64,000 nucleotides of DNA, from the NCBI RefSeq assembly GCF_054482525.1, contig NZ_CM137006.1; one strand, written 5' to 3'. The notes under the pieces are model-generated. The model was not told the DNA's origin and made no database searches. It worked only from the letters and a program-made list of their open reading frames with translations. The translations under genes and the position numbers were made by a program. Shown here one piece after another: positions 18,980 through 61,903 of the stretch (position 1 is the first letter of the stretch; each line of letters starts with the position of its first letter).

Positions 18980-19006
18980 ATCATCCTCCACAAAATGATA
19001 AAGGCT

Positions 19007-19030: not shown

Positions 19031-19167
19031 TTCGGTCGCTAACCTAAAAGCAAACGCGCACTATGTCAACTCTTGAGGTAACGCAATCTGCAACTCGGGG
19101 TTGCATCTGGTTGTGGTTACAATGAAAATGAGAAGCATTAACTTCATTAATAACAGGAAGCTGACTT

Positions 19168-20124: not shown

Positions 20125-20127
20125 GCA

Positions 20128-21378: not shown

Positions 21379-21451
21379 TACAATGCCTTGCCATCAAATA
21401 TTTTAAATACCTATTCTTAGGCTGCACATGCTAACATATCCAAATAAGATC

Positions 21452-21476
21452 GATAACGATAATTAATTTCATTATC
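21452..21476. promoter_or_regulatory. Candidate Fur box in entS/fepD divergent promoter region
   Basis: gataacgataattaatttcattatc is Fur-box-like, immediately upstream of fepD. Confidence 0.5.
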
Positions 21477-21488
21477 ATGGAAGTTCGT

Positions 21489-28600: not shown

Positions 28601-29521
28601 CGGCAGCGTTTCTTGCGCCGCAATGTGAATACCCAACGGCAAAACGTTGAGCACGGGTCCGGTAGCCGTCAGCGCCGCCGAGCCCAGTCGACGCATAAAG
28701 ATAAATCCGGCAGCGTAGTCCATGCGGTTGCACAATCGCCCCAGCCACAAGGCTGCCAACGCAAGTGCTAAATCGGTACGCTGCACACCTGAAAGTTGCG
28801 TAGCCAGCTGGCGGAATTCCCCGTCGGTAAATTCCAGTTTCAGGCGTAGAATATCTGCCGAGGCGCTGCGCCCCGGTAAAGGTGCCGGAGAAAGTGACGC
28901 GGGCGGCGGCAATTGACGACGCTGTTCCGCCCAGAATGCCGCATCACGCTGCCAGGCTTCGCTTTCGCGGTATTGCTGGTACTCTTCCACTACATCAGCG
29001 AAAGGCGTAAACGGCGAAGCAGGCGTTGGTTCGCCACGCAGCCATGCGCAGTAAATATTGGCGATCTGGCGGGTAATGGCTGGGAAACTGAAGCCATCGA
29101 CCAGCAAATGGTGATAACGCTGATACCAGTACCAGCGGTTATCCGCCACCTGTATCAACTGATGAAAGACCAGTGGTTTACCGCTATCGACGCGCAGATC
29201 TTGTTGCAAATCTGCCTGCATTAATGCCCGCGCAGTACCGTGCGGATCAATGTTGGTTCGCAGGTCGATAATTTCTGGCAGTTCGAACGTCAGCGCATCA
29301 TCGACCCACTGCCAGACTTCGCCGTTATCTTCCGTAAAACACATCCGCAGCGTATCTGCTTGCGCTAATCCGGCAACCACCGCGCGGGCCAGTAATGGCG
29401 CATCAACCTCTCCGGTTAACTCAACGTAATGCGCCACGCTCCAGGCGGAGGGTAAATCCGACAGTTTTTCTGCCATCCAGATGCCGGGCTGTGCGGCGAC
29501 CAAAGGTAAATGCTGGCTCAT
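25640..29521 (-). CDS. entF: Enterobactin non-ribosomal peptide synthetase EntF (C-A-PCP-TE)
   Basis: ORF 25640-29659; start at MSQHLPLVAAQPGIWMAEKL gives 1293 aa; carrier motif GGHSLLAM, thioesterase GYSLGG. Confidence 0.95.
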   Translation of the reverse strand: MSQHLPLVAAQPGIWMAEKLSDLPSAWSVAHYVELTGEVDAPLLARAVVAGLAQADTLRMCFTEDNGEVWQWVDDALTFELPEIIDLRTNIDPHGTARALMQADLQQDLRVDSGKPLVFHQLIQVADNRWYWYQRYHHLLVDGFSFPAITRQIANIYCAWLRGEPTPASPFTPFADVVEEYQQYRESEAWQRDAAFWAEQRRQLPPPASLSPAPLPGRSASADILRLKLEFTDGEFRQLATQLSGVQRTDLALALAALWLGRLCNRMDYAAGFIFMRRLGSAALTATGPVLNVLPLGIHIAAQETLPQLATRLAAQLKKMRRHQRYDAEQIVRDSGRAAGDEPLFGPVLNIKVFDYQLDIPGVQAQTHTLATGPVNDLELALFPDEHGDLSIEILANKQRYDEPTLIQHAERLKMLIAQFAADPALLCGDVDIMLPGEYVQLAQINATQVEIPETTLSALVAEQAAKTPDAPALADARYLFSYREMREQVVALANLLRERGVKPGDSVAVALPRSVFLTLALHAIVETGAAWLPLDTGYPDDRLKMMLEDARPSLLITTDDQLPRFADVPDLTSLCYNAPLTPQGSAPLQLSQPHHTAYIIFTSGSTGRPKGVMVGQTAIVNRLLWMQNHYPLTGEDIVAQKTPCSFDVSVWEFFWPFIAGAKLVMAEPEAHRDPLAMQQFFAEYGVTTTHFVPSMLAAFVASLTPQTARQNCATLKQVFCSGEALPADLCREWQQLTSVPLHNLYGPTEAAVDVSWYPAFGEELAQVRGSSVPIGYPVWNTGLRILDAMMHPVPPGVAGDLYLTGIQLAQGYLGRPDLTASRFIADPFAPGERMYRTGDVARWLDNGAVEYLGRSDDQLKIRGQRIELGEIDRVMQALPDVEQAVTHACVINQAAATGGDARQLVGYLVSQSGLPLDTTALQAQLRETLPPHMVPVVLLQLPQLPLSANGKLDRKALPLPELKAQAPGRAPKAGSETIIAAAFASLLGCDVQDADADFFALGGHSLLAMKLAAQLSRQFARQVTPGQVMVASTVAKLATIIDGDEDSSRRMGFETILPLREGNGPTLFCFHPASGFAWQFSVLSRYLDPQWSIIGIQSPRPNGPMQTAANLDEVCEAHLATLLEQQPHGPYYLLGYSLGGTLAQGIAARLRARGEQVAFLGLLDTWPPETQNWQEKEANGLDPEVLAEINREREAFLAAQQGSTSTELFTTIEGNYADAVRLLTTAHSVPFEGKATLFVAERTLQEGMNPERAWSPWIAELDIYRQDCAHVDIISPGAFEKIGPIIRATLNR

Positions 29522-29736
29522 TGCGCCTCCTGCAACTGGGTGAAATTCGACGGTGTCAGAGTACGCCAGTGGGCTTCCAGCCACTGCTGGCAGGACGCCT
29601 GTGACTGCGGCTGACACACAACGTCCCAGCCTGCCGGTAAGGCGCATTGTTGCGGCCACAGACTGAATTGCCCCTGCGCATTGCGCAAAATGTAAAACGC
29701 TCCCTGCGGATCATCGAAGGGATTACTGAATGCCAT
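29518..29736 (-). CDS. ybdZ: MbtH-like protein YbdZ
   Basis: Start at MAFSNPFDDPQGAFYILRNAQGQFSLWP (72 aa); stop overlaps entF start. Confidence 0.9.
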   Translation of the reverse strand: MAFSNPFDDPQGAFYILRNAQGQFSLWPQQCALPAGWDVVCQPQSQASCQQWLEAHWRTLTPSNFTQLQEAQ

Positions 29737-29738
29737 AT

Positions 29739-30941
29739 TCAACTCCTGTCATGGAAAAGTGGTTGCCAGAGGTCGATTAGCCCCTGCATCAAGCCACCGC
29801 GCCAACAAAGCGCATCATGTCCGCCGTCAACCTGACGCCAGAAAATGGATTCTTTTATGGGGTGTAATTGCGCATACAGCGCCTGATTGGCCCGCATAAT
29901 CATCGGCTCGCGAATACCCGCTTCCAGCACAATGCGCAGACCTTCGGCGCTAACTTCACCAGCTTTAAGTTGCTCAAGTAAAACACCTTCTTGCTGCCCG
30001 CCCCGATGCGGCCACCAGTACGATCCTGACTGGCTTAATACACAGCCAAAGCGTTCAGGCCAGTGCAGTCCGGCATACAGCGCGGAAAGCCCACCAAAAC
30101 TCTGCCCGGCGACCACGGTGCGATCGGCGCGATCGTTAAAAGGGGCAATAGCTTTCACCAGGGGTAATAACTCTTGCTGTACTGCCAGCCAGAAATCCGC
30201 ATTACACGGCAGTTCGTGGGCGCGGTGCGTGGTGTCGATAGCGTCGATCAACACATACACGGCGGGAGGAAGTTGCCGACGATGGGTCAGCGAAGTTAGC
30301 GCAGGCCAGACGGGCATACTTTGCGCCCAAAATTCGCCATCGAGCAAAACTGCCAGCGGGCGTTCTTCTGCTGTTGCATCGCCGGTGGTAAAAATCCATA
30401 CACGGCGTGAATTTTTCAACCGTTCACTTTTCCAGATAATTTCTTTGGCAGGCGTTTCTGGCGCTTGCGGACAATTCCAACCCGGTTGTAGGGGCGCTTG
30501 CGGCATTTCGAGTGCAGAAACAGCGTGCCCTCGCCCGCCTTTCCAGCTTTGTGGATTCAGCGGATCGGCTATCGCCTGGGGTAATAGTTTTCGCCAGCCT
30601 TCGCGTAATTCGAGGCGATCGGGGGATGGTGCAGAAAAAATGTCATCGCGTTCAGTAGGAATAAAGCAGTAGCTGCCGCGCCAGTTGGCATTGAGTTGTG
30701 TCGTCCACTGCCAAACATCGGTTCCTGCAATTCGCTGCATCGACTGGGGCTGGCTGTTCTGATGGTGATCGGTCACACCAGTGATGTAGACCCATACGCG
30801 CTTTATCGTCGAGTATTCTTCAGAACCTTGGGGATCACGCCACCAGAAAGTGACCTCAAACATTTCGTCATTCAGACGCTGCCATTCCGGGCCATGTTTC
30901 GACTGCCACCAGCTCTCACTTCCTACTTTTAACGCCGTCAC
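29739..30941 (-). CDS. fes: Ferric enterobactin esterase Fes
   Basis: 400-aa ORF with alpha/beta hydrolase C-terminal domain (GQSFGG). Confidence 0.9.
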   Translation of the reverse strand: MTALKVGSESWWQSKHGPEWQRLNDEMFEVTFWWRDPQGSEEYSTIKRVWVYITGVTDHHQNSQPQSMQRIAGTDVWQWTTQLNANWRGSYCFIPTERDDIFSAPSPDRLELREGWRKLLPQAIADPLNPQSWKGGRGHAVSALEMPQAPLQPGWNCPQAPETPAKEIIWKSERLKNSRRVWIFTTGDATAEERPLAVLLDGEFWAQSMPVWPALTSLTHRRQLPPAVYVLIDAIDTTHRAHELPCNADFWLAVQQELLPLVKAIAPFNDRADRTVVAGQSFGGLSALYAGLHWPERFGCVLSQSGSYWWPHRGGQQEGVLLEQLKAGEVSAEGLRIVLEAGIREPMIMRANQALYAQLHPIKESIFWRQVDGGHDALCWRGGLMQGLIDLWQPLFHDRS

Positions 30942-30993
30942 ACCATAACCCCATGTTTACTGTGCAATTTTTCATTGATTGCAGAAATATATT

Positions 30994-31012
30994 GATAATA
31001 TTATTGATAACT
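30994..31012. promoter_or_regulatory. Fur box in fes/fepA bidirectional promoter region
   Basis: gataatattattgataact in the AT-rich divergent intergenic region. Confidence 0.55.
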
Positions 31013-31183
31013 ATTTGCATTTGCAATAGCGTAATGGCGCGCCGTGGGAAGCGCGGACATTAATTAACCAACTGCACTGCGTGTCTTTCAGGATCAAAGG
31101 TTTTCGCGGTAGCGGGATGCGTCGTGTTGATGACGACCATGCCCGACAGTTGCAATTCGTGGCAAAAATGCAGGAATAAAACA

Positions 31184-33424
31184 ATGAACAAGAAGATTCA
31201 TTCCCTGGCCTTGTTGGTCAATCTGGGGATTTATGGGGTAGCACAGGCACAAGAGCCAACCGATACTCCTGTTTCACATGACGATACCATTGTCGTTACC
31301 GCCGCCGAGCAGAACTTGCAGGCGCCTGGCGTTTCGACCATCACCGCAGATGAAATCCGCAAAAACCCGGTTGCCCGCGATGTGTCGGAGATCATCCGTA
31401 CCATGCCAGGCGTTAACCTGACCGGTAACTCCACCAGTGGTCAGCGTGGGAATAACCGACAGATTGATATTCGCGGCATGGGTCCGGAAAACACGCTGAT
31501 TTTGATTGACGGTAAACCGGTAAGCAGCCGTAACTCGGTGCGTCAGGGCTGGCGTGGCGAGCGCGATACCCGTGGTGATACCTCCTGGGTGCCACCTGAA
31601 ATGATTGAACGTATTGAAGTTCTGCGTGGTCCGGCAGCTGCGCGTTATGGCAACGGCGCGGCGGGCGGCGTGGTTAACATCATTACCAAAAAAGGCAGCG
31701 GTGAGTGGCACGGCTCCTGGGACGCTTATTTCAATGCGCCAGAACATAAAGAGGAAGGTGCCACCAAACGCACTAACTTTAGCCTCACCGGTCCGCTGGG
31801 CGACGAATTCAGCTTCCGCTTGTATGGCAACCTCGACAAAACTCAGGCTGACGCGTGGGATATCAACCAGGGCCATCAGTCCGCGCGTGCCGGAACGTAT
31901 GCCACGACGTTACCAGCCGGGCGCGAAGGGGTAATTAACAAAGATATTAATGGCGTGGTGCGCTGGGACTTCGCGCCTCTGCAATCACTCGAACTGGAAG
32001 CGGGCTACAGCCGCCAGGGTAACCTGTATGCGGGCGACACCCAGAACACCAACTCTGACTCCTATACCCGCTCGAAATATGGCGATGAAACCAACCGTCT
32101 GTATCGCCAGAACTACTCGCTGACATGGAACGGCGGCTGGGATAACGGCGTGACCACCAGCAACTGGGTGCAGTACGAACACACCCGTAACTCGCGTATT
32201 CCGGAAGGTCTGGCGGGCGGTACCGAAGGGAAATTTAACGAAAAAGCGACACAGGATTTCGTCGATATCGATCTCGATGACGTGATGCTGCACAGCGAAG
32301 TTAACCTGCCGATTGATTTCCTCGTTAACCAGACGCTGACGCTGGGTACGGAGTGGAATCAGCAGCGGATGAAGGATTTAAGTTCCAACACCCAGGCGCT
32401 CACTGGGACGAATACCGGCGGTGCTATTGATGGCGTGAGTGCCACCGACCGTAGCCCGTATTCAAAAGCAGAAATTTTCTCGCTATTTGCCGAAAACAAT
32501 ATGGAGCTGACTGACAGCACCATCGTAACGCCGGGGCTGCGTTTCGATCATCACAGCATTGTTGGCAATAACTGGAGTCCGGCGCTGAACATCTCGCAAG
32601 GTTTAGGCGATGACTTCACGCTGAAAATGGGCATTGCCCGTGCTTATAAAGCGCCGAGTCTGTACCAGACTAACCCGAACTACATTCTCTACAGTAAAGG
32701 TCAGGGCTGCTATGCCAGCGCGGGCGGCTGCTATCTGCAAGGTAATGATGACCTGAAAGCAGAAACCAGCATCAACAAAGAGATTGGTCTGGAGTTCAAA
32801 CGCGACGGCTGGCTGGCGGGCGTCACCTGGTTCCGTAACGATTATCGCAATAAGATTGAAGCGGGCTATGTGGCTGTAGGGCAAAACGCAGTCGGCACCG
32901 ATCTCTATCAGTGGGATAACGTACCGAAAGCGGTGGTTGAAGGTCTGGAAGGATCGTTAAACGTACCGGTTAGCGAAACGGTGATGTGGACCAATAACAT
33001 CACTTATATGCTGAAGAGTGAAAACAAAACCACGGGCGACCGTTTGTCGATCATCCCGGAGTATACGTTGAACTCAACGCTGAGCTGGCAGGCACGGGAA
33101 GATTTGTCGATGCAAACAACCTTCACCTGGTACGGCAAGCAGCAGCCGAAGAAGTACAACTATAAAGGTCAGCCAGCGGTTGGACCGGAAACCAAAGAAA
33201 TCAGCCCGTACAGCATTGTTGGCCTGAGCGCGACCTGGGATGTAACGAAGAATGTCAGTCTGACCGGCGGCGTGGACAACCTGTTCGACAAACGTTTGTG
33301 GCGTGCGGGTAATGCCCAGACCACAGGCGATCTGGCAGGAGCCAACTATATCGCCGGTGCCGGGGCATATACCTATAACGAGCCGGGACGTACGTGGTAT
33401 ATGAGCATTAATACTCACTTCTGA
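31184..33424 (+). CDS. fepA: TonB-dependent ferric-enterobactin outer-membrane receptor FepA
   Basis: ORF 31124-33424; start at MNKKIHSLALLVNLGIYGVAQA gives 746 aa; TonB box DTIVVTA, C-terminal F. Confidence 0.95.
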   Translation: MNKKIHSLALLVNLGIYGVAQAQEPTDTPVSHDDTIVVTAAEQNLQAPGVSTITADEIRKNPVARDVSEIIRTMPGVNLTGNSTSGQRGNNRQIDIRGMGPENTLILIDGKPVSSRNSVRQGWRGERDTRGDTSWVPPEMIERIEVLRGPAAARYGNGAAGGVVNIITKKGSGEWHGSWDAYFNAPEHKEEGATKRTNFSLTGPLGDEFSFRLYGNLDKTQADAWDINQGHQSARAGTYATTLPAGREGVINKDINGVVRWDFAPLQSLELEAGYSRQGNLYAGDTQNTNSDSYTRSKYGDETNRLYRQNYSLTWNGGWDNGVTTSNWVQYEHTRNSRIPEGLAGGTEGKFNEKATQDFVDIDLDDVMLHSEVNLPIDFLVNQTLTLGTEWNQQRMKDLSSNTQALTGTNTGGAIDGVSATDRSPYSKAEIFSLFAENNMELTDSTIVTPGLRFDHHSIVGNNWSPALNISQGLGDDFTLKMGIARAYKAPSLYQTNPNYILYSKGQGCYASAGGCYLQGNDDLKAETSINKEIGLEFKRDGWLAGVTWFRNDYRNKIEAGYVAVGQNAVGTDLYQWDNVPKAVVEGLEGSLNVPVSETVMWTNNITYMLKSENKTTGDRLSIIPEYTLNSTLSWQAREDLSMQTTFTWYGKQQPKKYNYKGQPAVGPETKEISPYSIVGLSATWDVTKNVSLTGGVDNLFDKRLWRAGNAQTTGDLAGANYIAGAGAYTYNEPGRTWYMSINTHF

Positions 33425-34219: not shown

Positions 34220-34329
34220 TTGACAACATCTGGTACGATTCGCCCGCAGCCATCACTGACCACGGGCGAAAGTGTAAAGCAGGTGCCTTACCATCCTGAC
34301 CTGACAACCGGATATGCGGGGATTACTCC

Positions 34330-35668
34330 CATAAGCGCTAACTTAAGGGTTGAACCATCTGAAGAATGCGACGCCTCGGTGCCTCGTTAAGACGATGCCT
34401 CGCGTTCTTCAATTGCGTTTTGTAGGCTGTCAGGGATACTGTCCCACGAATGGCCACCTGTAAGCTCCAGATGACCATTTTTGTTATTCTCCACAACGAG
34501 TTAGTTCTTCTTTTCGGATCCGGCACTTCTGGGGGGGAAATCCAGCGATGGCTGGATTATGTCGTCAATTAAAAATGCGGCGAGTAGATTAGCAAATATC
34601 CACGCTTTCGCGAGTTCAGGTTCCTTTGCACGCAAAGCATCCAGGTGCAGCAAACTTTTGAGCCGCTTAAAAGCCAGTTCAATTTGCCATCGCAGACGGT
34701 AACAATCAGCCACTTGCTCTGCTGAATATTCATCTTCCGGTAATGATGTTAGCAATAGCACATGGCCCGCTGCTTCCAGCGTTTCCGCCTGAACTACTCG
34801 TCCTTTTCGACGATTCTCGCTGAGCAGTCGGGTTTTACTGATTAATGCTTTTTCGGGAGGAAGTGATACGGCAATGAGACGTGCCGGAAAGGGAGCTCCG
34901 GCTTTTTTATTACCTGAATTGCCTATCATTACAGTGGTTTCACCGTTCTTACCGCAATCCAGCCCGCGCAGAAAACCCATCATGTCAAAGCGCATTCCTT
35001 CTGCAGTTAACCAGCGCAATCCTCGCCAGTGAACCCGGACGATATAATCAGCTTCTCCAAAAGCAAGTGAGCGGATACATTCGGGACGCGAACCGAATCC
35101 CCGGTCAGCAATGCGTATCTCGTCTGCCGTTTGCGCAAATCGGTCCAGCCGTTCAGCGTCTCTGCTGTCGGTTAGCTCAAAATCAGTGAACTGACAGGTA
35201 TGAGGATCATATCCCATATGTAGTCGCCATTCAGCGCTGCCGCCCCCGGGCGCACTGATTGCTGTTCCATCGACAAGACGCAATCTCTTTCCGCTTGTAC
35301 AACCCGTAACTGCGGCGCGTACAGCAAGTGTTTGTGCGGCAAGTATGCCAAACCAGTCGGCGGCATTCCGCAGCCGCTTCAGGAGAGCCACGTCAGATAA
35401 TGTTGCAACGTCATGGAGCTGAGCCCATGCAGTGACTTCACGTAATGACATCCCCCCGGGGCCGTAAGCCAGCCCCAGACGTAGCAGAGTTGCAGCATCA
35501 CGAATTTCGCGGCGGCGGGTTAGAGCCCCGGCATTACGTGCCGAAGTATCCAGTTCTTCGGGCTTACCAATATGGGCCAGAATTGCTGACCAGTTATCGT
35601 GAGAGTAATTCATCGGCACGTTAAATCATATCAGGCGTAATACCACAACCCTTAAGTTAGCGCTTATG
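34330..35668 (-). mobile_element. IS186 (IS4 family), copy 1, transposase on minus strand
   Basis: ~1.34 kb bounded by 23-bp inverted repeats CATAAGCGCTAACTTAAGGGTTG; flanked by ~10-11 bp direct repeat GGATTACTCC (34319-34329 / 35669-35679). Confidence 0.9.
34501..35619 (-). CDS. insL: IS186 transposase
   Basis: 372-aa ORF MPMNYSHDNWSAILAHIGKPEELD..., identical in protein sequence to the ORF at 36231-37349. Confidence 0.95.
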   Translation of the reverse strand: MPMNYSHDNWSAILAHIGKPEELDTSARNAGALTRRREIRDAATLLRLGLAYGPGGMSLREVTAWAQLHDVATLSDVALLKRLRNAADWFGILAAQTLAVRAAVTGCTSGKRLRLVDGTAISAPGGGSAEWRLHMGYDPHTCQFTDFELTDSRDAERLDRFAQTADEIRIADRGFGSRPECIRSLAFGEADYIVRVHWRGLRWLTAEGMRFDMMGFLRGLDCGKNGETTVMIGNSGNKKAGAPFPARLIAVSLPPEKALISKTRLLSENRRKGRVVQAETLEAAGHVLLLTSLPEDEYSAEQVADCYRLRWQIELAFKRLKSLLHLDALRAKEPELAKAWIFANLLAAFLIDDIIQPSLDFPPRSAGSEKKN

Positions 35669-35689
35669 GGATTACTCCCCGCACAACGG

Positions 35690-35987: not shown

Positions 35988-36180
35988 CCGCTGTTATCTT
36001 ACCCTTCCTTAGCAAAATAACTGTTTATTTATACAGCTAGTCCTGTTTCGGACTTCTGTTGGCAACACTCGTTATTGCTCGTAAAACGACATCGCCCGCA
36101 GCCATTGCTGACCGCGGGCGAAAGTGTAAAGCAGGTGCCTTACCACCCTGACCTGACAACCGGATATGCGGGGATTACTC

Positions 36181-37520
36181 CCATAAGCGCTAACTTAAGG
36201 GTTGTGGTATTACGCCTGATATGATTTAACGTGCCGATGAATTACTCTCACGATAACTGGTCAGCAATTCTGGCCCATATTGGTAAGCCCGAAGAACTGG
36301 ATACTTCGGCACGTAATGCCGGGGCTCTAACCCGCCGCCGCGAAATTCGTGATGCTGCAACTCTGCTACGTCTGGGGCTGGCTTACGGCCCCGGGGGGAT
36401 GTCATTACGTGAAGTCACTGCATGGGCTCAGCTCCATGACGTTGCAACATTATCTGACGTGGCTCTCCTGAAGCGGCTGCGGAATGCCGCCGACTGGTTT
36501 GGCATACTTGCCGCACAAACACTTGCTGTACGCGCCGCAGTTACGGGTTGTACAAGCGGAAAGAGATTGCGTCTTGTCGATGGAACAGCAATCAGTGCGC
36601 CCGGGGGCGGCAGCGCTGAATGGCGACTACATATGGGATATGATCCTCATACCTGTCAGTTCACTGATTTTGAGCTAACCGACAGCAGAGACGCTGAACG
36701 GCTGGACCGATTTGCGCAAACGGCAGACGAGATACGCATTGCTGACCGGGGATTCGGTTCGCGTCCCGAATGTATCCGCTCACTTGCTTTTGGAGAAGCT
36801 GATTATATCGTCCGGGTTCACTGGCGAGGATTGCGCTGGTTAACTGCAGAAGGAATGCGCTTTGACATGATGGGTTTTCTGCGCGGGCTGGATTGCGGTA
36901 AGAACGGTGAAACCACTGTAATGATAGGCAATTCAGGTAATAAAAAAGCCGGAGCTCCCTTTCCGGCACGTCTCATTGCCGTATCACTTCCTCCCGAAAA
37001 AGCATTAATCAGTAAAACCCGACTGCTCAGCGAGAATCGTCGAAAAGGACGAGTAGTTCAGGCGGAAACGCTGGAAGCAGCGGGCCATGTGCTATTGCTA
37101 ACATCATTACCGGAAGATGAATATTCAGCAGAGCAAGTGGCTGATTGTTACCGTCTGCGATGGCAAATTGAACTGGCTTTTAAGCGGCTCAAAAGTTTGC
37201 TGCACCTGGATGCTTTGCGTGCAAAGGAACCTGAACTCGCGAAAGCGTGGATATTTGCTAATCTACTCGCCGCATTTTTAATTGACGACATAATCCAGCC
37301 ATCGCTGGATTTCCCCCCCAGAAGTGCCGGATCCGAAAAGAAGAACTAACTCGTTGTGGAGAATAACAAAAATGGTCATCTGGAGCTTACAGGTGGCCAT
37401 TCGTGGGACAGTATCCCTGACAGCCTACAAAACGCAATTGAAGAACGCGAGGCATCGTCTTAACGAGGCACCGAGGCGTCGCATTCTTCAGATGGTTCAA
37501 CCCTTAAGTTAGCGCTTATG
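36181..37520 (+). mobile_element. IS186, copy 2, transposase on plus strand (inverted relative to copy 1)
   Basis: Same 23-bp terminal inverted repeats; interior is the reverse complement of copy 1; flanked by GGATTACTCC direct repeat (36170-36180 / 37521-37531). Confidence 0.9.
36231..37349 (+). CDS. insL: IS186 transposase
   Basis: 372-aa ORF identical to the copy at 34501-35619. Confidence 0.95.
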   Translation: MPMNYSHDNWSAILAHIGKPEELDTSARNAGALTRRREIRDAATLLRLGLAYGPGGMSLREVTAWAQLHDVATLSDVALLKRLRNAADWFGILAAQTLAVRAAVTGCTSGKRLRLVDGTAISAPGGGSAEWRLHMGYDPHTCQFTDFELTDSRDAERLDRFAQTADEIRIADRGFGSRPECIRSLAFGEADYIVRVHWRGLRWLTAEGMRFDMMGFLRGLDCGKNGETTVMIGNSGNKKAGAPFPARLIAVSLPPEKALISKTRLLSENRRKGRVVQAETLEAAGHVLLLTSLPEDEYSAEQVADCYRLRWQIELAFKRLKSLLHLDALRAKEPELAKAWIFANLLAAFLIDDIIQPSLDFPPRSAGSEKKN

Positions 37521-37541
37521 GGATTACTCCCCGCACAACGG

Positions 37542-50758: not shown

Positions 50759-52190
50759 GCCATTTCAGCGCCCGTTTTCGCTGGCAACCCGCCTGACCTT
50801 TTTTATCAGCCTGGCCACCATCGCGGCTTTTTTCGCCTTTGCATGGATCATGATCCACTCAGTAAAAGTGCATTTTGCCGAGCAGGATATTAATGATTTA
50901 AAAGAAATTAGCGCCACCCTTGAACGGGTACTTAATCATCCTGACGAGACGCAAGCCCGACGCTTAATGACGCTGGAAGATATCGTCAGTGGTTATTCCA
51001 ATGTGTTGATTTCCCTGGCAGATAGCCACGGTAAAACGGTGTATCACTCCCCCGGTGCGCCGGATATCCGTGAGTTTACGCGTGACGCCATACCCGATAA
51101 AGACACGCGGGGCGGCGAGGTGTATCTCCTTTCCGGCCCGACGATTATGATGCCAGGGCACGGTCACGGGCATATGGAACACAGCAACTGGCGGATGATT
51201 AACTTGCCAGTTGGCCCGTTGGTGGACGGCAAACCGATTTATACGCTTTACATCGCGCTTTCGATCGATTTTCATCTTCATTACATAAATGATTTGATGA
51301 ATAAACTTATTATGACCGCATCGATCATCAGCATCCTGATCGTCTTTATCGTGCTATTGGCGGTACATAAAGGTCACTCGCCGATCCGCAGCGTCAGCCG
51401 TCAAATCCAGAACATTACCTCGAAAGATCTAGACGTTCGCCTTGACCCGCAGACCGTGCCGATTGAGCTGGAACAGTTGGTACTGTCGTTCAACCATATG
51501 ATCGAGCGTATTGAGGATGTCTTTACCCGCCAGTCCAATTTCTCAGCGGATATCGCCCACGAAATTCGTACACCAATTACGAATCTCATAACGCAAACCG
51601 AAATCGCCCTCAGCCAGTCGCGCAGCCAGAAGGAACTGGAAGATGTGCTCTACTCTAATCTCGAAGAGCTGACGCGAATGGCGAAAATGGTCAGCGATAT
51701 GCTGTTTCTCGCTCAGGCCGATAACAACCAGTTAATCCCCGAAAAGAAAATGCTCAACCTGGCGGATGAAATCGGCAAAGTGTTCGATTTTTTCGAGGCG
51801 CTAGCGGAAGATCGCGGCGTGGAACTGCGGTTTGTTGGCGACAAGTGTCAGGTCGCGGGCGATCCGCTGATGCTGCGTCGGGCGTTAAGCAACCTGCTTT
51901 CTAATGCCCTGCGTTATACGCCCCCCGGAGAGGCAATTGTAGTGCGCTGCCAGACGGTCGATCACCAGGTGCAAATTACCGTCGAAAACCCCGGTACGCC
52001 CATTGAGCCCGAACACTTACCGCGATTGTTTGACCGTTTCTATCGCGTTGACCCCTCCCGCCAGCGAAAAGGTGAAGGTAGCGGTATTGGCCTGGCGATA
52101 GTGAAATCGATTGTTGTCGCACATAAAGGCACGGTTGCCGTAACGTCAGATGCGCGGGGAACAAGGTTTATTATCACATTACCCGCTTAA
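50748..52190 (+). CDS. cusS: Copper sensor histidine kinase CusS
   Basis: ORF 50736-52190; start at [16 protein letters not shown] gives 480 aa; H-box [10 protein letters not shown]. Confidence 0.9.
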
Positions 52191-52339: not shown

Positions 52340-54576
52340 GTGGACTGGCTTCTTGATGTTTTTGCTACCTGGCTCTACGGCTTAAAAGTAATCGCGATAA
52401 CGTTAGCGGTCATCATGTTCATCAGCGGGCTGGACGATTTTTTTATTGATGTCGTCTACTGGGTACGCCGCATTAAACGCAAGTTGAGTGTTTATCGCCG
52501 CTACCCGCGAATGAGTTACCGCGAACTGTATAAACCAGATGAAAAACCGTTAGCGATTATGGTTCCGGCGTGGAATGAAACGGGCGTCATCGGCAATATG
52601 GCCGAGCTGGCGGCGACCACGCTCGACTATGAAAACTATCATATCTTTGTTGGCACCTACCCCAACGACCCCGATACTCAGCGTGATGTTGACGAAGTGT
52701 GCGCTCGCTTCCCAAACGTGCATAAGGTAGTCTGCGCGCGTCCTGGCCCCACCAGCAAAGCCGACTGCCTGAACAACGTGCTGGACGCCATCACCCAGTT
52801 TGAGCGTAGCGCCAATTTCGCATTTGCTGGTTTTATTCTGCATGACGCCGAAGATGTGATTTCACCGATGGAATTGCGTCTGTTCAACTATCTGGTCGAG
52901 CGTAAAGATCTGATTCAGATCCCGGTGTACCCATTCGAACGCGAATGGACGCACTTCACCAGCATGACTTACATTGATGAGTTTTCAGAACTGCATGGCA
53001 AAGATGTTCCGGTGCGTGAAGCCCTTGCCGGACAGGTGCCCAGCGCAGGCGTCGGCACCTGTTTCAGCCGCCGCGCCGTGACCGCACTGTTAGCTGACGG
53101 TGACGGTATTGCTTTCGACGTGCAGAGTCTTACTGAAGATTACGACATTGGTTTCCGCCTGAAAGAAAAAGGTATGACGGAAATTTTTGTCCGTTTTCCG
53201 GTGGTGGACGAAGCCAAAGAACGCGAGCAGCGTAAATTTTTACAGCACGCGCGGACGTCAAACATGATCTGCGTGCGCGAATATTTCCCCGATACCTTTT
53301 CGACTGCGGTTCGACAAAAATCTCGCTGGATCATCGGCATTGTTTTCCAGGGCTTTAAAACCCACAAATGGACCTCCAGTCTGACGCTGAACTACTTTCT
53401 CTGGCGCGACCGCAAAGGGGCAATCAGTAACTTTGTCAGCTTCCTCGCGATGCTGGTGATGATCCAGCTTTTGCTGTTGCTGGTGTATGAAAGTTTGTGG
53501 CCCGATGCCTGGCATTTCCTTTCTATTTTCAGCGGCAGCGCATGGTTAATGACTCTGCTGTGGCTAAACTTTGGCTTGATGATTAACCGCATCGTGCAGC
53601 GGGTGATTTTCGTTACTGGCTACTACGGCCTGACGCAGGGGCTGCTATCTGTCCTGCGTCTTTTCTGGGGCAACCTGATTAACTTCATGGCCAACTGGCG
53701 CGCGTTAAAACAGGTACTTCAACACGGCGATCCACGTCGCGTCGCGTGGGATAAAACAACGCATGACTTCCCCAGCGTGACTGGCGATACCCGCTCGTTG
53801 CGTCCGTTAGGTCAAATCCTGCTGGAAAATCAGGTCATCACTGAAGAACAACTCGATACAGCACTGCGTAATCGCGTCGAAGGTCTACGCCTGGGCGGTT
53901 CAATGCTGATGCAGGGGCTGATTAGCGCCGAACAGCTGGCACAGGCGCTGGCAGAGCAAAACGGCGTGGCGTGGGAATCCATCGACGCCTGGCAGATCCC
54001 GTCCTCGCTGATTGCCGAAATGCCGGCCTCCGTGGCGCTGCATTATGCAGTGCTGCCGCTGCGTCTGGAAAATGATGTGTTAATTGTCGGCAGTGAAGAT
54101 GGTATTGACCCGGTTTCGCTGGCAGCCCTGACGCGTAAAGTCGGACGCAAAGTGCGTTACGTCATTGTTCTGCGGGACAAATTGTCACGGGGTTACGTCA
54201 CTGGTATGCACGCCGACGCGGTCACGATCCGCGGGCAATGTTGTACAATGCGGTTCAGCATCAGTGGCTCACGGAACAGCAGGCCGGTGAAATCTGGCGG
54301 CAATATGTGCCGCATCAGTTCCTGTTCGCCGAAATACTGACCACGCTCGGTCATATTAATCGTTCAGCAATTAACGTGTTGTTATTGCGCCATGAACGCA
54401 GTTCTCTGCCGCTCGGCAAGTTTTTGGTCACCGAAGGCGTTATCAGCCAGGAAACGTTGGATCGCGTCCTGACAATTCAACGCGAATTACAAGTTTCGAT
54501 GCAATCACTATTACTCAAAGCAGGTTTAAACACAGAACAGGTTGCGCAACTGGAGTCCGAAAATGAAGGAGAATAA
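52340..54576 (+). pseudogene. nfrB: nfrB (glycosyltransferase with C-terminal MshEN-like c-di-GMP-binding region, phage N4 susceptibility), interrupted by a frameshift
   Basis: 666-aa frame ends at 54340 in Cys/Ser-rich read-through; a second frame (protein-like from about 54238 to 54576) carries a further MshEN-like motif LPLGKFLVTEGVISQETLDRVL. Total span is 2237 nt, one base short of 745 codons plus stop. Confidence 0.65.
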
Positions 54577-57535
54577 CCTTAATCGCGTCATCGGATGGTC
54601 TGGTTTACTGCTGACGTCTTTATTGAGTACCAGCGCACTCGCAGACAATATCGGCACCAGCGCAGAAGAGCTGGGGCTGAGCGATTATCGCCATTTTGTT
54701 ATTTATCCCCGTCTCGACAAGGCGCTGAAGGCACAGAAAAATAACGACGAAGCAACCGCCATCCGCGAATTTGAATATATACACCAGCAGGTGCCGGATA
54801 ATATTCCGCTAACTTTATACCTTGCGGAAGCCTATCGCCATTTTGGTCATGATGCCCGGGCGCGGCTGTTGCTTGAGGATCAACTGAAACGTCACCCAGG
54901 AGATGCCCGACTTGAGCGCAGTCTGGCGGCTATTCCAGTTGAAGTGAAAAGCGTTACGACTGTTGAAGAACTGCTTGCCCAGCAAAAAGCGTGCGACGCT
55001 GCGCCGACCCTGCGTTGTCGCAGTGAAGTTGGGCAGAATGCCCTGCGGCTGGCACAATTACCTGTCGCCAGAGCGCAACTGAACGATGCGACGTTTGCTG
55101 CATCGCCGGAAGGAAAAACGCTGCGAACCGATCTGCTGCAACGCGCAATCTACCTGAAACAATGGTCCCAGGCAGATACGCTATACAATGAAGCACGCCA
55201 GCAGAACACATTAAGCGCGGCAGAACGCCGCCAGTGGTTTGATGTGCTTCTTGCCGGGCAGCTGGACGATCGGATCCTGGCGCTGCAATCACAGGGGATC
55301 TTCACCGATCCTCAGTCATATATTACTTACGCGACCGCGCTGGCTTATCGTGGCGAAAAAGCACGCCTCCAGCGTTATCTCATTGAAAATACTCCGCTAT
55401 TTACCACGGACGCACAAGAGAAAAGTTGGCTCTATCTGTTATCTAAATACAGCGGCAACCCCGTTCAGGAGTTGGCGAATTATACGGTACAGTTTGCCGA
55501 CAACCGCCAGTATGTTGTTGGCGCGACGCTACCGGTGCTGTTAAAAGAAGGTCAGTACGACGCAGCGCAAAAACTGCTCGCCACCCTCCCCGCCAATGAA
55601 ATGCTTGAGGAGCGTTATACCGTTAGCGTAGCGACCCATAACAAGGCTGAAGCTCTGCGTCTGGCACGATTGCTGTATCAGCAAGAACCGGCAAATCTTA
55701 CCCGCCTGGATCAACTGACCTGGCAACTGATGCAGAACGAGCAGTCACGCGAAGCTGCCGATTTATTGCTGCAACGCTATCCTTTCCAGGGCGATGCGCG
55801 TGTCAGCCAGACTTTAATGGCGCGACTGGCGTCTCTGCTGGAAAGTCATCCTTACCTGGCAACGCCGGCGAAGGTGGCGATTTTATCGAAACCCTTACCG
55901 CTGGCGGAGCAACGTCAGTGGCAAAGTCAGTTGCCGGGTATTGCAGATAATTGCCCGGCAATAGTTCGCTTGCTGGGCGATATGTCGCCTTCCTACGATG
56001 CCGCCGCCTGGAACCGTCTGGCAAAGTGTTATCGGGACACGCTACCCGGTGTGGCGTTGTATGCATGGCTTCAGGCCGAACAACGACAACCGAACGCCTG
56101 GCAACATCGTGCGGTAGCCTATCAGGCGTATCAGGTTGAGGACTACGCCACCGCACTGGCGGCCTGGCAGAAAATCAGTCTTCACGACATGAGCAATGAG
56201 GATCTGCTTGCTGCTGCCAATACCGCCCAGGCGGCAGGAAATGGTGCGGCTCGCGATCGCTGGCTTCAGCAGGCAGAACAACGTGGGCTGGGAAACAATG
56301 CCCTCTACTGGTGGCTGCATGCGCAACGTTACATTCCTGGTCAGCCGGAACTCGCACTGAACGATCTCACGCGCTCAATCAATATTGCGCCTTCTGCCAA
56401 CGCTTACGTTGCGCGGGCGACAATTTATCGCCAACGTCATAATGTCCCGGCGGCGGTGAGTGATTTGCGCGCCGCTCTGGAACTGGAACCGAATAATAGC
56501 AACACCCAGGCAGCGCTCGGTTACGCCTTGTGGGATAGCGGTGATATCGCACAGTCGCGGGAAATGCTCGAACAGGCGCATAAAGGGCTACCGGACGATC
56601 CGGCACTTATCCGACAACTGGCCTACGTGAACCAGCGTCTGGATGACATGCCTGCGACGCAGCACTACGCCCGGCTGGTGATTGATGACATTGATAATCA
56701 GGCGCTGATAACCCCACTGACCCCAGAGCAAAATCAGCAACGCTTCAATTTCCGCCGTCTGCATGAGGAGGTCGGTCGCCGCTGGACGTTCAGTTTCGAT
56801 TCTTCTATCGGCTTGCGTTCCGGCGCAATGAGTACCGCTAACAATAATGTCGGCGGCGCAGCGCCAGGGAAAAGCTATCGTAGCTACGGGCAACTGGAAG
56901 CCGAGTACCGTATCGGACGCAATATGCTGCTGGAAGGCGACCTGCTCTCAGTTTATAGCCGCGTCTTTGCCGATACCGGTGAAAACGGGGTGATGATGCC
57001 GGTGAAAAATCCGATGTCCGGCACCGGTCTGCGCTGGAAGCCGCTGCGCGATCAGATCGTTTTCCTCGCCGTCGAACAGCAGTTGCCGCTGAACGGGCAA
57101 AATGGCGCATCCGATACCATGCTGCGCGCCAGCGCCTCATTCTTTAATGGCGGCAAATACAGCGACGAATGGCACCCGAACGGTTCAGGCTGGTTTGCCC
57201 AAAACCTGTACCTCGATGCGGCGCAATATGTCCGCCAGGATATTCAGGCGTGGACGGCAGATTATCGCGTAAGCTGGCATCAGAAGGTGGCGAACGGACA
57301 GACTATTGAGCCTTACGCTCACGTTCAGGACAACGGTTATCGTGATAAAGGCACTCAGGGCGCGCAGCTTGGCGGTGTCGGGGTCCGCTGGAATATCTGG
57401 ACCGGCGAGACGCACTACGACGCCTGGCCGCACAAACTCAGTCTCGGCATCGAATATCAACATACCTTTAAGGCGATTAATCAACGTAACGGAGAGCGCA
57501 ACAACGCGTTTCTCACCATTGGAGTGCACTGGTAA
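54563..57535 (+). CDS. nfrA: Outer-membrane protein NfrA (phage N4 receptor, TPR-containing)
   Basis: ORF 54542-57535; start at MKENNLNRVIGWSGLLL gives 990 aa; start overlaps the nfrB frame-B stop. Confidence 0.9.
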   Translation: MKENNLNRVIGWSGLLLTSLLSTSALADNIGTSAEELGLSDYRHFVIYPRLDKALKAQKNNDEATAIREFEYIHQQVPDNIPLTLYLAEAYRHFGHDARARLLLEDQLKRHPGDARLERSLAAIPVEVKSVTTVEELLAQQKACDAAPTLRCRSEVGQNALRLAQLPVARAQLNDATFAASPEGKTLRTDLLQRAIYLKQWSQADTLYNEARQQNTLSAAERRQWFDVLLAGQLDDRILALQSQGIFTDPQSYITYATALAYRGEKARLQRYLIENTPLFTTDAQEKSWLYLLSKYSGNPVQELANYTVQFADNRQYVVGATLPVLLKEGQYDAAQKLLATLPANEMLEERYTVSVATHNKAEALRLARLLYQQEPANLTRLDQLTWQLMQNEQSREAADLLLQRYPFQGDARVSQTLMARLASLLESHPYLATPAKVAILSKPLPLAEQRQWQSQLPGIADNCPAIVRLLGDMSPSYDAAAWNRLAKCYRDTLPGVALYAWLQAEQRQPNAWQHRAVAYQAYQVEDYATALAAWQKISLHDMSNEDLLAAANTAQAAGNGAARDRWLQQAEQRGLGNNALYWWLHAQRYIPGQPELALNDLTRSINIAPSANAYVARATIYRQRHNVPAAVSDLRAALELEPNNSNTQAALGYALWDSGDIAQSREMLEQAHKGLPDDPALIRQLAYVNQRLDDMPATQHYARLVIDDIDNQALITPLTPEQNQQRFNFRRLHEEVGRRWTFSFDSSIGLRSGAMSTANNNVGGAAPGKSYRSYGQLEAEYRIGRNMLLEGDLLSVYSRVFADTGENGVMMPVKNPMSGTGLRWKPLRDQIVFLAVEQQLPLNGQNGASDTMLRASASFFNGGKYSDEWHPNGSGWFAQNLYLDAAQYVRQDIQAWTADYRVSWHQKVANGQTIEPYAHVQDNGYRDKGTQGAQLGGVGVRWNIWTGETHYDAWPHKLSLGIEYQHTFKAINQRNGERNNAFLTIGVHW

Positions 57536-58426
57536 ATGCGTAAGTTCATTTTCGTATTGCTGACACTGCTTTTGGTCAGCCCTTTTTCCTTTGCGATGAA
57601 AGGTATTATCTGGCAGCCACAAAACCGTGATAGTCAGGTTACCGATACCCAGTGGCAGGGGCTGATGAGTCAGTTACGTTTGCAAGGCTTCGATACCCTG
57701 GTTTTGCAATGGACCCGTTACGGCGATGCATTCACCCAGCCAGAACAGCGCGCGTTATTGTTTAAGCGTGCCGCAGCTGCGCAACAGGCTGGCCTGAAGC
57801 TGATTGTCGGGCTGAATGCCGATCCGGAATTTTTTATGCACCAGAAACAGTCATCCGCGGCGCTGGAAAGCTATCTTAACCGCCTGCTGGCTGCCGATCT
57901 CCAGCAAGCCAGATTATGGAGCGCCGTACCTGGCGTAACGCCGGATGGCTGGTACATCAGCGCGGAAATTGACGACCTGAACTGGCGCAGCGAAGCCGCC
58001 CGTCAGCCTTTGCTGACATGGTTAAACAACGCGCAGCGGTTGATTAGCGATGTTTCAGCAAAACCGGTTTATATCAGTAGTTTTTTCGCCGGAAACATGT
58101 CGCCCGATGGCTATCGCCAACTGCTGGAACACGTTAAAACAACCGGCGTTAATGTCTGGGTACAGGATGGCAGCGGCGTGAATAAACTTACCGCTGAACA
58201 GCGTGAACGTTATCTACAGGCCAGCGCCGATTGCCAAAGTTCCGCCCCTGCCAGCGGCATTGTTTATGAACTGTTTGTCGCCGGCAAAGGCAAAACCTTT
58301 ACAGCGAAACCGAAACCGGATGCAGAGATCGCCTCGCTGTTAGCGAAACGTTCCTCTTGCGGTAAAGACACGCTCTATTTCTCTCTGCGCTATTTGCCCG
58401 TTGCGCACGGCATTCTCGAGTATTAA
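57536..58426 (+). CDS. ybcH: Uncharacterised periplasmic/lipoprotein-like protein YbcH
   Basis: 296-aa ORF with signal peptide directly after nfrA. Confidence 0.85.
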   Translation: MRKFIFVLLTLLLVSPFSFAMKGIIWQPQNRDSQVTDTQWQGLMSQLRLQGFDTLVLQWTRYGDAFTQPEQRALLFKRAAAAQQAGLKLIVGLNADPEFFMHQKQSSAALESYLNRLLAADLQQARLWSAVPGVTPDGWYISAEIDDLNWRSEAARQPLLTWLNNAQRLISDVSAKPVYISSFFAGNMSPDGYRQLLEHVKTTGVNVWVQDGSGVNKLTAEQRERYLQASADCQSSAPASGIVYELFVAGKGKTFTAKPKPDAEIASLLAKRSSCGKDTLYFSLRYLPVAHGILEY

Positions 58427-58608
58427 ATCTCCTCCAGGTAAGTCGGGTACGACCTGGCTTACCTCTTTCGCTCTCGTCAGAATTCCATCAAGATTAATTG
58501 CTAAAAAGCGTGCTAAAGAAAGAAGATCGTTATCGGCGAACGGGCCGATCACTCATGCAGGAAGCATAGATCCTTTGAGCGGAGTTTCTGATATCTGAGG
58601 AGTGCGAA

Positions 58609-59370
58609 ATGCAATTGAGCAGTAGTGAACCTTGCGTGGTGATCCTGACCGAAAAAGAGGTAGAGGTAAGCGTTAATAACCATGCTACGTTTACCCTTCC
58701 GAAAAACTACCTGGCCGCCTTCGCGTGCAACAATAACGTCATTGAACTCTCAACGTTAAATCACGTATTAATCACCCACATCAACCGTAACATCATCAAC
58801 GATTATCTGTTGTTTTTAAATAAGAACTTAACCTGCGTAAAGCCCTGGTCGCGGCTGGCAACCCCGGTTATCGCTTGTCATAGCCGTACACCGGAAGTGT
58901 TCCGGCTAGCCGCCAACCACAGCAAGCAGCAACCCAGCAAACCCTGCGAAGCGGAGTTGACGCGCGCATTGCTTTTTACCGTATTGTCTAACTTTCTTGA
59001 GCAATCGCGGTTTATTGCCCTACTGATGTATATCTTACGCAGTAGCGTCCGCGACAGCGTCTGCCGCATTATTCAAAGCGATATTCAGCATTACTGGAAT
59101 CTGCGAATTGTCGCCAGTTCGCTATGTTTAAGCCCCAGCCTGCTCAAAAAGAAATTAAAAAACGAAAATACCAGCTATAGCCAGATTGTCACAGAGTGTC
59201 GTATGCGTTACGCCGTACAGATGTTATTGATGGATAACAAAAATATCACTCAGGTAGCGCAATTATGTGGCTATAGCAGCACGTCGTACTTTATCTCTGT
59301 TTTTAAGGCGTTTTACGGCCTGACACCGTTGAATTATCTCGCCAAACAGCGACAAAAAGTGATGTGGTGA
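58609..59370 (+). CDS. envY: AraC-family transcriptional regulator EnvY
   Basis: 253-aa ORF with C-terminal AraC HTH (ITQVAQLCGYSSTSYFISVFKAFYGLTP). Confidence 0.85.
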   Translation: MQLSSSEPCVVILTEKEVEVSVNNHATFTLPKNYLAAFACNNNVIELSTLNHVLITHINRNIINDYLLFLNKNLTCVKPWSRLATPVIACHSRTPEVFRLAANHSKQQPSKPCEAELTRALLFTVLSNFLEQSRFIALLMYILRSSVRDSVCRIIQSDIQHYWNLRIVASSLCLSPSLLKKKLKNENTSYSQIVTECRMRYAVQMLLMDNKNITQVAQLCGYSSTSYFISVFKAFYGLTPLNYLAKQRQKVMW

Positions 59371-59415
59371 AGGGCAAAGCGGAAACAGATAAGACGGGCA
59401 TAAATGAAGAAGAAA

Positions 59416-59492
59416 TGGCGCGCCCTGCAGGATTCGAACCTGCGGCCCACGACTTAGAAGGTCGTTGCTCTATCCAACTGAGCTAAGGGCGC
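59416..59492 (-). tRNA. argU: tRNA-Arg (anticodon UCU), argU-type
   Basis: Minus-strand 77 nt GCGCCCTTAGCTCAGTTGGATAGAGCAACGACCTTCTAAGTCGTGGGCCGCAGGTTCGAATCCTGCAGGGCGCGCCA: cloverleaf, TPsiC loop GGTTCGAATCC, anticodon loop CUUCUAA, encoded CCA. Confidence 0.9.
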
Positions 59493-59734
59493 GTTGATAC
59501 CGCAATGCGGTGTAATCGCGTGAATTATACGGTCAACCCTTGCTGAGTCAATGGCTTTTGATCTGTTTGCTGAACAAGTGAACGACCGCGTCTGATTTTC
59601 TGATTTATTTCGCTATAGCGGCAAACAAACGTACACCGCTGCGCGTCTGAATCAAGAAAACCCGTATTTTCATGTATCAAAGTACAATTTCCCGCCCTAA
59701 CGGAAAATTGTCCGATCCTATGAGACTGGTAACT

Positions 59735-60367
59735 ATGAAACCAACGTCGGTGATCATTATGGATACTCATCCTATCATCAGAATGTCTATTGAAGTTCTG
59801 TTGCAAAAAAACAGTGAATTGCAAATTGTCCTGAAAACGGATGATTATCGCATAACCATCGATTATCTCCGAACCCGTCCTGTTGATTTAATCATTATGG
59901 ATATAGACTTGCCCGGAACAGACGGTTTTACCTTCCTGAAAAGGATCAAACAAATCCAGAGCACAGTGAAAGTATTATTTTTATCATCGAAATCAGAATG
60001 CTTTTATGCTGGCAGAGCGATACAAGCTGGTGCTAACGGTTTTGTCAGTAAATGCAATGATCAGAATGATATTTTTCACGCCGTTCAGATGATCCTCTCC
60101 GGATACACTTTTTTCCCCAGCGAAACGCTCAACTATATAAAAAGCAATAAATGCAGTACGAATAGTTCAACGGTCACGGTGCTATCTAATCGTGAAGTGA
60201 CCATATTACGTTATCTGGTTAGCGGATTATCCAATAAAGAAATTGCCGATAAGTTATTACTTAGCAATAAAACAGTTAGTGCGCATAAATCTAATATTTA
60301 TCGCAAGCTAGGTTTGCATTCAATTGTAGAGCTTATCGACTACGCCAAATTATATGAATTAATATAA
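59735..60367 (+). CDS. fimZ: LuxR/FixJ-family response regulator FimZ
   Basis: ORF 59672-60367; start at MKPTSVIIMDTHPIIRMSIEVLL gives 210 aa; receiver domain plus LuxR HTH. Confidence 0.9.
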   Translation: MKPTSVIIMDTHPIIRMSIEVLLQKNSELQIVLKTDDYRITIDYLRTRPVDLIIMDIDLPGTDGFTFLKRIKQIQSTVKVLFLSSKSECFYAGRAIQAGANGFVSKCNDQNDIFHAVQMILSGYTFFPSETLNYIKSNKCSTNSSTVTVLSNREVTILRYLVSGLSNKEIADKLLLSNKTVSAHKSNIYRKLGLHSIVELIDYAKLYELI

Positions 60368-60369: not shown

Positions 60370-60885
60370 TTAATTATAATTGATCATAAATATCGCATCC
60401 GCTTTCGCCACACCTGGCTGAACACCGCTGGCTAACGCTCGATAATTGGCAAAAAAGTTTAGTGTGACATTGCCATTTGCATCTACTTCCTCAGTCGGGC
60501 TCGCCTCCCCCAGTGCGAGCCGGGAGCGATCGCTATTACGTAATTCGATGGCGACGGTTTGTGCCATTGCGGGATCATCCAAAGCCAGCAGGTTGGCATC
60601 AGCTGCCGGCGTTCCCGTAAATAAAATCGCAACTGAACCCGGAGGACATCCCTCCAGCCGCAGGCTAAAAGGGACGAGTGCCGTGGTATCGCCAGCGCTC
60701 AGTAATTGTGTCGTAGGCCATCTGCCTAAATCTACCGTCTTATCCTTATCCGCTGTGTTTACGGTACAGGAGAAATCAACAACGTTACCGTGCAAATTGA
60801 TATTAATCGTTCCTAAAGGGTCAACTGCCCATCCACTGGAACTCCACAGTAGCCCGCAGAAACAGCTAAAGAGTACTCTTCTCAT
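60370..60885 (-). CDS. sfmF: Fimbrial-like minor subunit SfmF
   Basis: ORF 60370-61080; start at MRRVLFSCFCGLLWSSSGWA (signal peptide) gives 171 aa. Confidence 0.85.
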   Translation of the reverse strand: MRRVLFSCFCGLLWSSSGWAVDPLGTININLHGNVVDFSCTVNTADKDKTVDLGRWPTTQLLSAGDTTALVPFSLRLEGCPPGSVAILFTGTPAADANLLALDDPAMAQTVAIELRNSDRSRLALGEASPTEEVDANGNVTLNFFANYRALASGVQPGVAKADAIFMINYN

Positions 60886-60895: not shown

Positions 60896-61903
60896 TCATT
60901 GATAATCGACGCGTAAATACCCCAGCGCGCTAAACGGCCCTTCGGTCGGTTTTTGACCGGTAATACTGATAGGCCAGGCGCGAAGTGTGACATTGGCTGC
61001 CGCAGCTGCATCCAGACGGAAAGGAATAACGCTATTGAGATCGTTAGGCGTGATCGGCGTATCGTTCTGATCGGCCACAATAAAACCTAAATCCTGATTG
61101 TCCGACACCATCGCCTGACCAGAAACGGCACTGGCTTCCAGACGCATTGTTAAATAAGCCTGCGCAGCAACATTCGTACATTTGATCGCAATGCTCTTGG
61201 TTTGCGGCATGACACCAGCTGGTCGATTCCCCGGCCCTGCCGCACTAAATAACGATGCGCCGATATCACCAAAATCAAATTCAACAATTTGCCCGGCATT
61301 TAATTCGCAGTTTTGCGGTACTTCAACCCGGCCCCCAAAACTAATGGTATAAACAGGTGTAACCAACGGATCGTTAGGCGTTGATGTCACATACACGGTA
61401 AACATCACCTGTCTGGGGATCTCCACCATGTTAATAAAGGGACGAATAACCTTTAAACGAAATATCAAACGAGAATCCATCACCCCGAACGGAAGGTTTT
61501 GCGAAACGTTAGGATCTGTTCCCATACGAATATAATTTTGCGGGGGGAATTGAATATCCATCACGCTATCAACCAGACTCATCGCACCTAATAGATAATC
61601 ATTTAATTGCATATATTTATAATTATCGATAGTTTCCTGAACAATAAAGTTGGTGACATAACTACGGTATGTATAATTCACCAGCGTGCCGGGTGGACAA
61701 ATTGCTGACACACCTACCCAGCCGGATTTTTCCGGTAAAACAACAATCTGGCCTGGCTGGTTATTGGTGCTATTAAAGACATTTGAGAGATCATAGTGTT
61801 CATCTTCTGCTACGCCAGTACTATTTGCACAAACAGTAGCCCAGGATATGTTTGCCAGACACAAACATGCCATTGCCAATAATAATCTGCAGATTATCTT
61901 CAT
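60896..61903 (-). CDS. sfmH: Fimbrial adhesin-like protein SfmH (FimH-like)
   Basis: 335-aa ORF with signal peptide; sits between usher and sfmF. Confidence 0.85.
   Translation of the reverse strand: MKIICRLLLAMACLCLANISWATVCANSTGVAEDEHYDLSNVFNSTNNQPGQIVVLPEKSGWVGVSAICPPGTLVNYTYRSYVTNFIVQETIDNYKYMQLNDYLLGAMSLVDSVMDIQFPPQNYIRMGTDPNVSQNLPFGVMDSRLIFRLKVIRPFINMVEIPRQVMFTVYVTSTPNDPLVTPVYTISFGGRVEVPQNCELNAGQIVEFDFGDIGASLFSAAGPGNRPAGVMPQTKSIAIKCTNVAAQAYLTMRLEASAVSGQAMVSDNQDLGFIVADQNDTPITPNDLNSVIPFRLDAAAAANVTLRAWPISITGQKPTEGPFSALGYLRVDYQ

Follow-up and report, generated by a model that had tools for sequence, protein, structure and literature searches.

The interval between envY and fimZ in the 64-kb stretch of DNA analysed here (the window) is almost certainly an intact, unoccupied attachment site (attB) for lambdoid phages of the DLP12 type, which is situated within the 3' portion of argU, a tRNA gene, on a non-K-12 E. 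coli chromosome. The junction is scar-free and is a textbook attB, and no observation speaks against an empty site. The window as a whole is ordinary E. coli core chromosome, running from citX to rna and then through ahpCF, ent/fep, hokE, cus, nfrBA, ybcH, envY, argU and fimZ to sfm. The features around the junction are as follows.

54563 to 57535, plus strand: nfrA, the chromosomal flank on the envY side; open reading frame, and PGAP annotation of the collinear PCN033 and 19KM1776 regions.
57536 to 58426, plus strand: ybcH (DUF4434 family); open reading frame matching NCBIfam NF007404 with 520 bits.
58609 to 59370 (stop codon included), plus strand: envY, AraC-family regulator; open reading frame, match to K-12 EnvY, annotated as envY in relatives.
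59371 to 59415, no strand: envY-argU spacer of 45 bp, which by alignment is the K-12 bacterial flank right of attR with 2 SNPs.
59414 to 59460, minus strand: att core CTTCTAAGTCGTGGGCCGCAGGTTCGAATCCTGCAGGGCGCGCCATT, 47 bp; BLAST overlap, three-way alignment, single occurrence.
59416 to 59492, minus strand: argU, tRNA-Arg(UCU), intact; ARAGORN, Rfam, identity to K-12.
59524 to 59551, minus strand: sigma-70 promoter-like site, TTGACT and TATAAT separated by a 16-nt spacer, with 11 of 12 consensus matches.
59735 to 60367, plus strand: fimZ, the chromosomal flank on the attL side; NCBIfam FimZ equivalog, 445 bits, and annotation in relatives.
60370 to 60885, minus strand: sfmF; open reading frame, and annotation of the collinear PCN033 region.
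60896 to 61903, minus strand: sfmH; open reading frame, and annotation of the collinear PCN033 region.
61916 to the window end (64000), where it is cut, minus strand: sfmD; open reading frame, and annotation of the collinear PCN033 region.

The envY gene encodes a 253-aa AraC-family product that is 99.6% identical to K-12 EnvY, and in K-12 it is the first gene beyond the attR side of DLP12. In the window, its stop codon (59370) is followed after exactly 45 bp (59371-59415) by the 3' end of argU, the sole tRNA gene that ARAGORN detected in the 64 kb (tRNA-Arg, anticodon tct, 59416-59492, minus strand). This gene scored 72.1 bits against the Rfam tRNA model RF00005, for which the gathering score is 29, and is identical to K-12 argU at 77 of 77 positions; the target tRNA gene is intact. 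Past argU lie fimZ and then sfmF, sfmH and sfmD. The initial annotation had placed envY about 45 bp from tRNA-Arg(UCU) with fimZ and the sfm genes next to it, and the open reading frames, ARAGORN and Rfam showed this to be correct to the base. A consensus scan also identified a strong sigma-70-like site 32 bp upstream of argU, a kind of site of which shuffled sequence yields about one; its position is suggestive of a putative argU promoter. The envY and argU genes converge on the 45-bp spacer, in which a consensus scan found no terminator-like hairpin or intrinsic terminator. As for nomenclature, in the relatives the sfmH orthologue carries the PGAP label 'type 1 fimbria D-mannose specific adhesin FimH', and sfmA and sfmC are called 'fimA' and 'fimC'; in a cluster of sfm (Salmonella-like fimbriae) genes, these labels are only a naming quirk.

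The corresponding locus of K-12 is occupied. In MG1655 (NC_000913.3), argU (564723-564799) and envY (586147-586908) are separated by 21.3 kb, and the cryptic prophage DLP12 is annotated between them at 564755-586056, with the genes intD, xisD, emrE, rusA, quuD, nmpC::IS5, essD/rrrD/rzpD, borD, nohD, appY and ompT. The initial annotation gave the K-12 map as having about 20 kb, including intD through appY and ompT, between argU and envY, in agreement with this distance. BLAST comparison with MG1655 yielded two alignments, one on the attL side (window 61000-59414 to K-12 563215-564801, 98.5% identity) and one on the attR side (window 59463-57000 to K-12 586054-588517, 97.9% identity). They share only window positions 59414-59463 in the 3' part of argU; that is, two flanks meet on the 3' part of argU in the window, and envY is not adjacent to argU in K-12.

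A three-way alignment of attB, attL and attR delimited a 47-bp core, CTTCTAAGTCGTGGGCCGCAGGTTCGAATCCTGCAGGGCGCGCCATT, which comprises the terminal 45 nt of argU (nucleotides 33-77) and 2 nt more. The core is identical (47/47) in the window, in K-12 attL (from 564755, coinciding with the RefSeq start of the DLP12 feature) and in K-12 attR (586057-586103). The window tracks the bacterial flank of attL on the left of the core and that of attR on the right, the latter with 2 SNPs in the 45-bp spacer. There is one core copy in the 64-kb window as against two in K-12, and the 27-nt 3' portion of the core is also single when up to 3 mismatches are allowed. Because the core is single in the window, envY lies only 45 bp from the tRNA 3' end. 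The DLP12 att core expected at the junction was thus present, once, at 59414-59460, and the earlier view of the argU site as unoccupied or cleanly emptied is borne out by a single core copy whose flanks are the bacterial sides of attL and attR. The core length and its overlap with argU agree with the published description, a passage of which gives attR as 47 bp of the argU 3' end (PMC6379469, citing Lindsey, Mullin and Walker 1989).

The window and the K-12 locus are therefore alike in the core (47/47), in argU (77/77), in having fimZ/sfm on one flank and in having envY-ybcH-nfrAB on the other, whereas K-12 carries the 21.3-kb prophage (intD to appY and ompT) between its core copies and the window site is empty. 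Searches of the window with the DLP12 interior, IntD, OmpT and EmrE gave no match (blastn and tblastn), and an AppY query matched only the paralogue EnvY, with 44% identity. We also considered envY-ybcH-nfrAB as an older island, of which a second, degenerate core copy toward the envY/nfr side would be a sign; no such copy was found in the window, the base composition is unremarkable, and this candidate was rejected.

Preservation of the tRNA by means of a duplicated 3' part is the usual pattern of phage and island integration sites in tRNA genes. The site described here shows no difference in kind from other such sites and is a standard example: within the tRNA, its core takes in everything between the anticodon loop and the 3' end, and an intact tRNA gene is therefore restored upon integration. 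The K-12 state arose when a phage integrase recombined at this 47-bp core: about 21.3 kb (intD through appY and ompT) came to lie between argU and envY, and the core was duplicated at both ends. Given the identity to the K-12 core, the site in the window should likewise be able to accept an argU-targeting phage.

To determine how common the two states are, junctions were counted in 5426 complete E. coli genomes, with at least 80% of the query being required in one place. The empty-site junction (window 58400-59800) was present in 2497 of these genomes (46%), while the K-12 ompT-envY and argU-intD junctions were present in 1583 (29%) and 1588 (29%), respectively. The 80% criterion would also pass insertions shorter than about 1.2 kb, yet all sampled rows of the empty junction had the length of the query, with annotated envY, tRNA-Arg and fimZ in this order. 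Most of the genomes beyond the empty and K-12-type junctions have variant elements at the site. Evenly spaced samples of the ranked matches revealed further classes, namely genomes with ompT and the core but without envY, O157:H7 genomes with ompT only, and genomes in which a diverged integrase adjoins argU. About 40% of the sampled rows showed an envY-tRNA or flank-tRNA arrangement with no phage-like feature; most of them had a single matching place and hence a chromosome devoid of ompT. An earlier survey reported DLP12 at the argU locus in 74% of 638 genomes (PMC6379469). At this polymorphic prophage locus, the empty site is a long-known allele and a very common one, and the initial annotation's treatment of the arrangement as notable does not hold when 2497 of 5426 complete genomes (46%) share the contiguous junction.

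The empty argU loci of PCN033, 19KM1776, WP8-S18-ESBL-07, O104:H4 and B7A have the same order and spacing of envY, tRNA-Arg and fimZ, and nothing is annotated between these genes in 19KM1776, PCN033 and WP8-S18-ESBL-07. Over 58400-59800, PCN033 is 100% identical to the window and others are 98.7-99.1% identical. What distinguishes the window from other empty-site strains is of strain level and is found away from the junction: the IS186 pair inserted at hokE, the IS200C and, in some relatives, a cusS/nfrB island.

Several side observations concern DLP12 in other genomes. In K-12 strains such as DH1, DH5alpha, S17-1 and ER1821R, the locus spans about 10 kb less than it would with a full DLP12. 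In DH1, the one examined among them, there is an IS5-associated deletion inside DLP12, from nmpC::IS5 into intD, and a truncated integrase adjoins argU (29499-31639 of the extracted region); this deletion is also known from XL1-Blue (PMC11148124). When species-representative genomes were searched for the envY-spacer-core pattern, which also fits attR of occupied sites, the sole match was a 3.6-kb contig of a 'Collinsella sp.' MAG (JAIJJM010000316.1). Positions 1-1579 of this contig are E. coli envY-attR-ompT DNA with 97% identity to K-12, and the contig is evidently mis-binned or a contaminant.

With respect to the strain background, window positions 39001-64000 are 100.0% identical to 19KM1776, a dog isolate, apart from the IS200C of that strain, 99.8% identical to PCN033, 98.9% to the third-best genome and 98.0% to K-12 strains; this ranking is biased, in that occupied genomes are split in two places and rank lower, and so it is unusable as an argument that all relatives are empty. 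Overall, identity to PCN033 ranges from 99.8 to 99.99%, with 3 SNPs over window positions 1-34330. PCN033 is a porcine ExPEC strain of serogroup O11 and phylogroup D (PMC4578781). Judged by these identities, the segment has its close relatives in PCN033 and 19KM1776, strains of phylogroup D. A K-12 background is excluded, with no DLP12 and an identity of only 98.0%, and the earlier statement that the segment does not come from a standard K-12 background is correct.

The window belongs to neither of these two strains. Identity with PCN033 was rejected on about 2.7 kb of extra DNA in the window (two IS186 elements) and a SNP cluster, and identity with 19KM1776 was rejected on the IS200C of that strain and its lack of the IS186 pair. 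Because of these insertion sequence differences from both relatives, the source strain is a third member of the lineage. The IS200C of 19KM1776 lies between ybdG and pheP (15215-15673 of the extracted region) and is absent from the ybdG/pheP intergenic region of the window. The two IS186-type (IS4-family) elements of the window form a perfect 1369-nt inverted pair (34315-35683 and 36167-37535) with transposase open reading frames of 372 aa at 34501-35619 (minus strand) and 36231-37349 (plus strand). The pair flanks 483 bp, which is one unit of a tandem hokE repeat, with each copy at the equal position in successive repeat units; it is absent from PCN033 and 19KM1776. In several relatives with 98.8% identity, a 10.6-kb island is also present between cusS and nfrB (e.g., 13527-23498 of the extracted region of WP8-S18-ESBL-07). 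Its contents are genes for a PAAR-like protein, an HNH/EndoVII toxin, WD40 repeat proteins and a SUKH-3 protein, together with ISAs1 elements. This island is absent from the window, where the equivalent spot is at about 52000-52150.

The initial annotation had also proposed that the genome lacks OmpT protease and AppY. Composite queries, in which a 2-kb single-copy core segment was joined to K-12 ompT or to appY and intD, were run against the nearest relatives. Each had one matching place per chromosome, the core segment; sensitive blastn (E<=1e-30) detected no ompT-like DNA, and no appY- or intD-like DNA, on the whole chromosome of PCN033 or 19KM1776. These results suggest that the lineage is without chromosomal OmpT and AppY, as found in its two nearest complete chromosomes. 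However, an omptin (ompTp) with 73% identity to K-12 OmpT across the full 317 residues is encoded on the 161-kb ColV-type plasmid p3 of PCN033, as also stated in the PCN033 genome paper (PMC4578781). This omptin is of the same family and length (317 aa) as K-12 OmpT but is plasmid-borne rather than located at argU, being found in the 20860-24326 region beside an SDR oxidoreductase (hlyF-type) and mig-14. It offers a lineage whose chromosome has no ompT access to omptin activity by way of a plasmid. Since so close a relative has a plasmid omptin, the claim must be limited to the chromosomal gene: the chromosomal ompT and appY genes are absent from the window and from the two nearest chromosomes, while lack of 'OmpT protease' is too strong a wording. 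The absence of OmpT applies to the chromosomal DLP12-borne gene; the cell itself may still possess omptin activity.

A question raised by the empty site is how it came to be empty. A site that was never occupied and one restored by precise excision leave the same attB, and sequence alone therefore cannot separate the two. We consider it unlikely, although worth weighing, that a DLP12-like prophage once resided at argU and was lost by precise Int/Xis-mediated excision that regenerated a perfect attB. A scar-free junction with one perfect core is the expected product of such an event, and DLP12 excision in K-12 has been reported to be inducible by Hha (PMC4632033), which makes precise loss possible in principle. 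In addition, DLP12-type elements are found at the site in roughly half of the genomes and across lineages, so that both gains and losses have happened in the species. On the contrary, a naive site looks identical, the closest complete chromosomes (PCN033 and 19KM1776) have no intD-, appY- or ompT-like DNA anywhere, and the close relatives examined (PCN033, 19KM1776 and WP8-S18-ESBL-07) are all empty, which does not point to a recent lysogen in this clade. The narrower proposal of a recent loss, in this phylogroup-D lineage, of a DLP12-like element with its ompT/appY cargo by precise excision, for which relatives such as PCN033 compensated with a plasmid omptin, appears improbable; if true, it would be a lineage-specific anecdote on a well-known polymorphic prophage site.

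A further explanation, which we regard as very improbable, is that the empty allele was imported by homologous recombination from an empty-site donor and replaced an occupied one. Of the 61 SNPs that distinguish the window from PCN033, 55 fall within 53554-58282 (the 3' end of nfrB, nfrA and ybcH), as against only 3 in the 34 kb on the left, and 19KM1776 is identical to the window across 53554-58282. This cluster looks like a recombination tract, and such tracts would thus occur beside the site. However, about 1.1 kb still separates the end of the tract from attB, and the site is empty in the window as it is in PCN033; hence, the tract did not change occupancy, and there is no direct evidence for a replacement. 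Finally, a misassembly in which two copies of the 47-bp core were collapsed and the prophage dropped, an error that direct repeats around an insert could in principle cause, can be dismissed in practice, given that the same junction occurs in 2497 independently assembled complete genomes, including the two nearest relatives at 100% across the junction, that a 47-bp repeat is shorter than the usual assembly k-mers or reads, and that the whole chromosomes of the relatives are without the ompT, appY and intD expected from a dropped prophage.

Overall, these results describe an unoccupied DLP12-type attB in argU. The att core and the presence/absence polymorphism of DLP12 across E. coli are already known from published work (PMC6379469), and with the empty state occurring in about 46% of complete genomes, the finding touches no open question. 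It does help to place the window in a PCN033-like, phylogroup-D, non-K-12 background in which the DLP12 cargo (ompT, appY, emrE, rusA, nmpC and the lysis genes) is absent at the site, and where argU may offer a free landing spot for the phages that target it.
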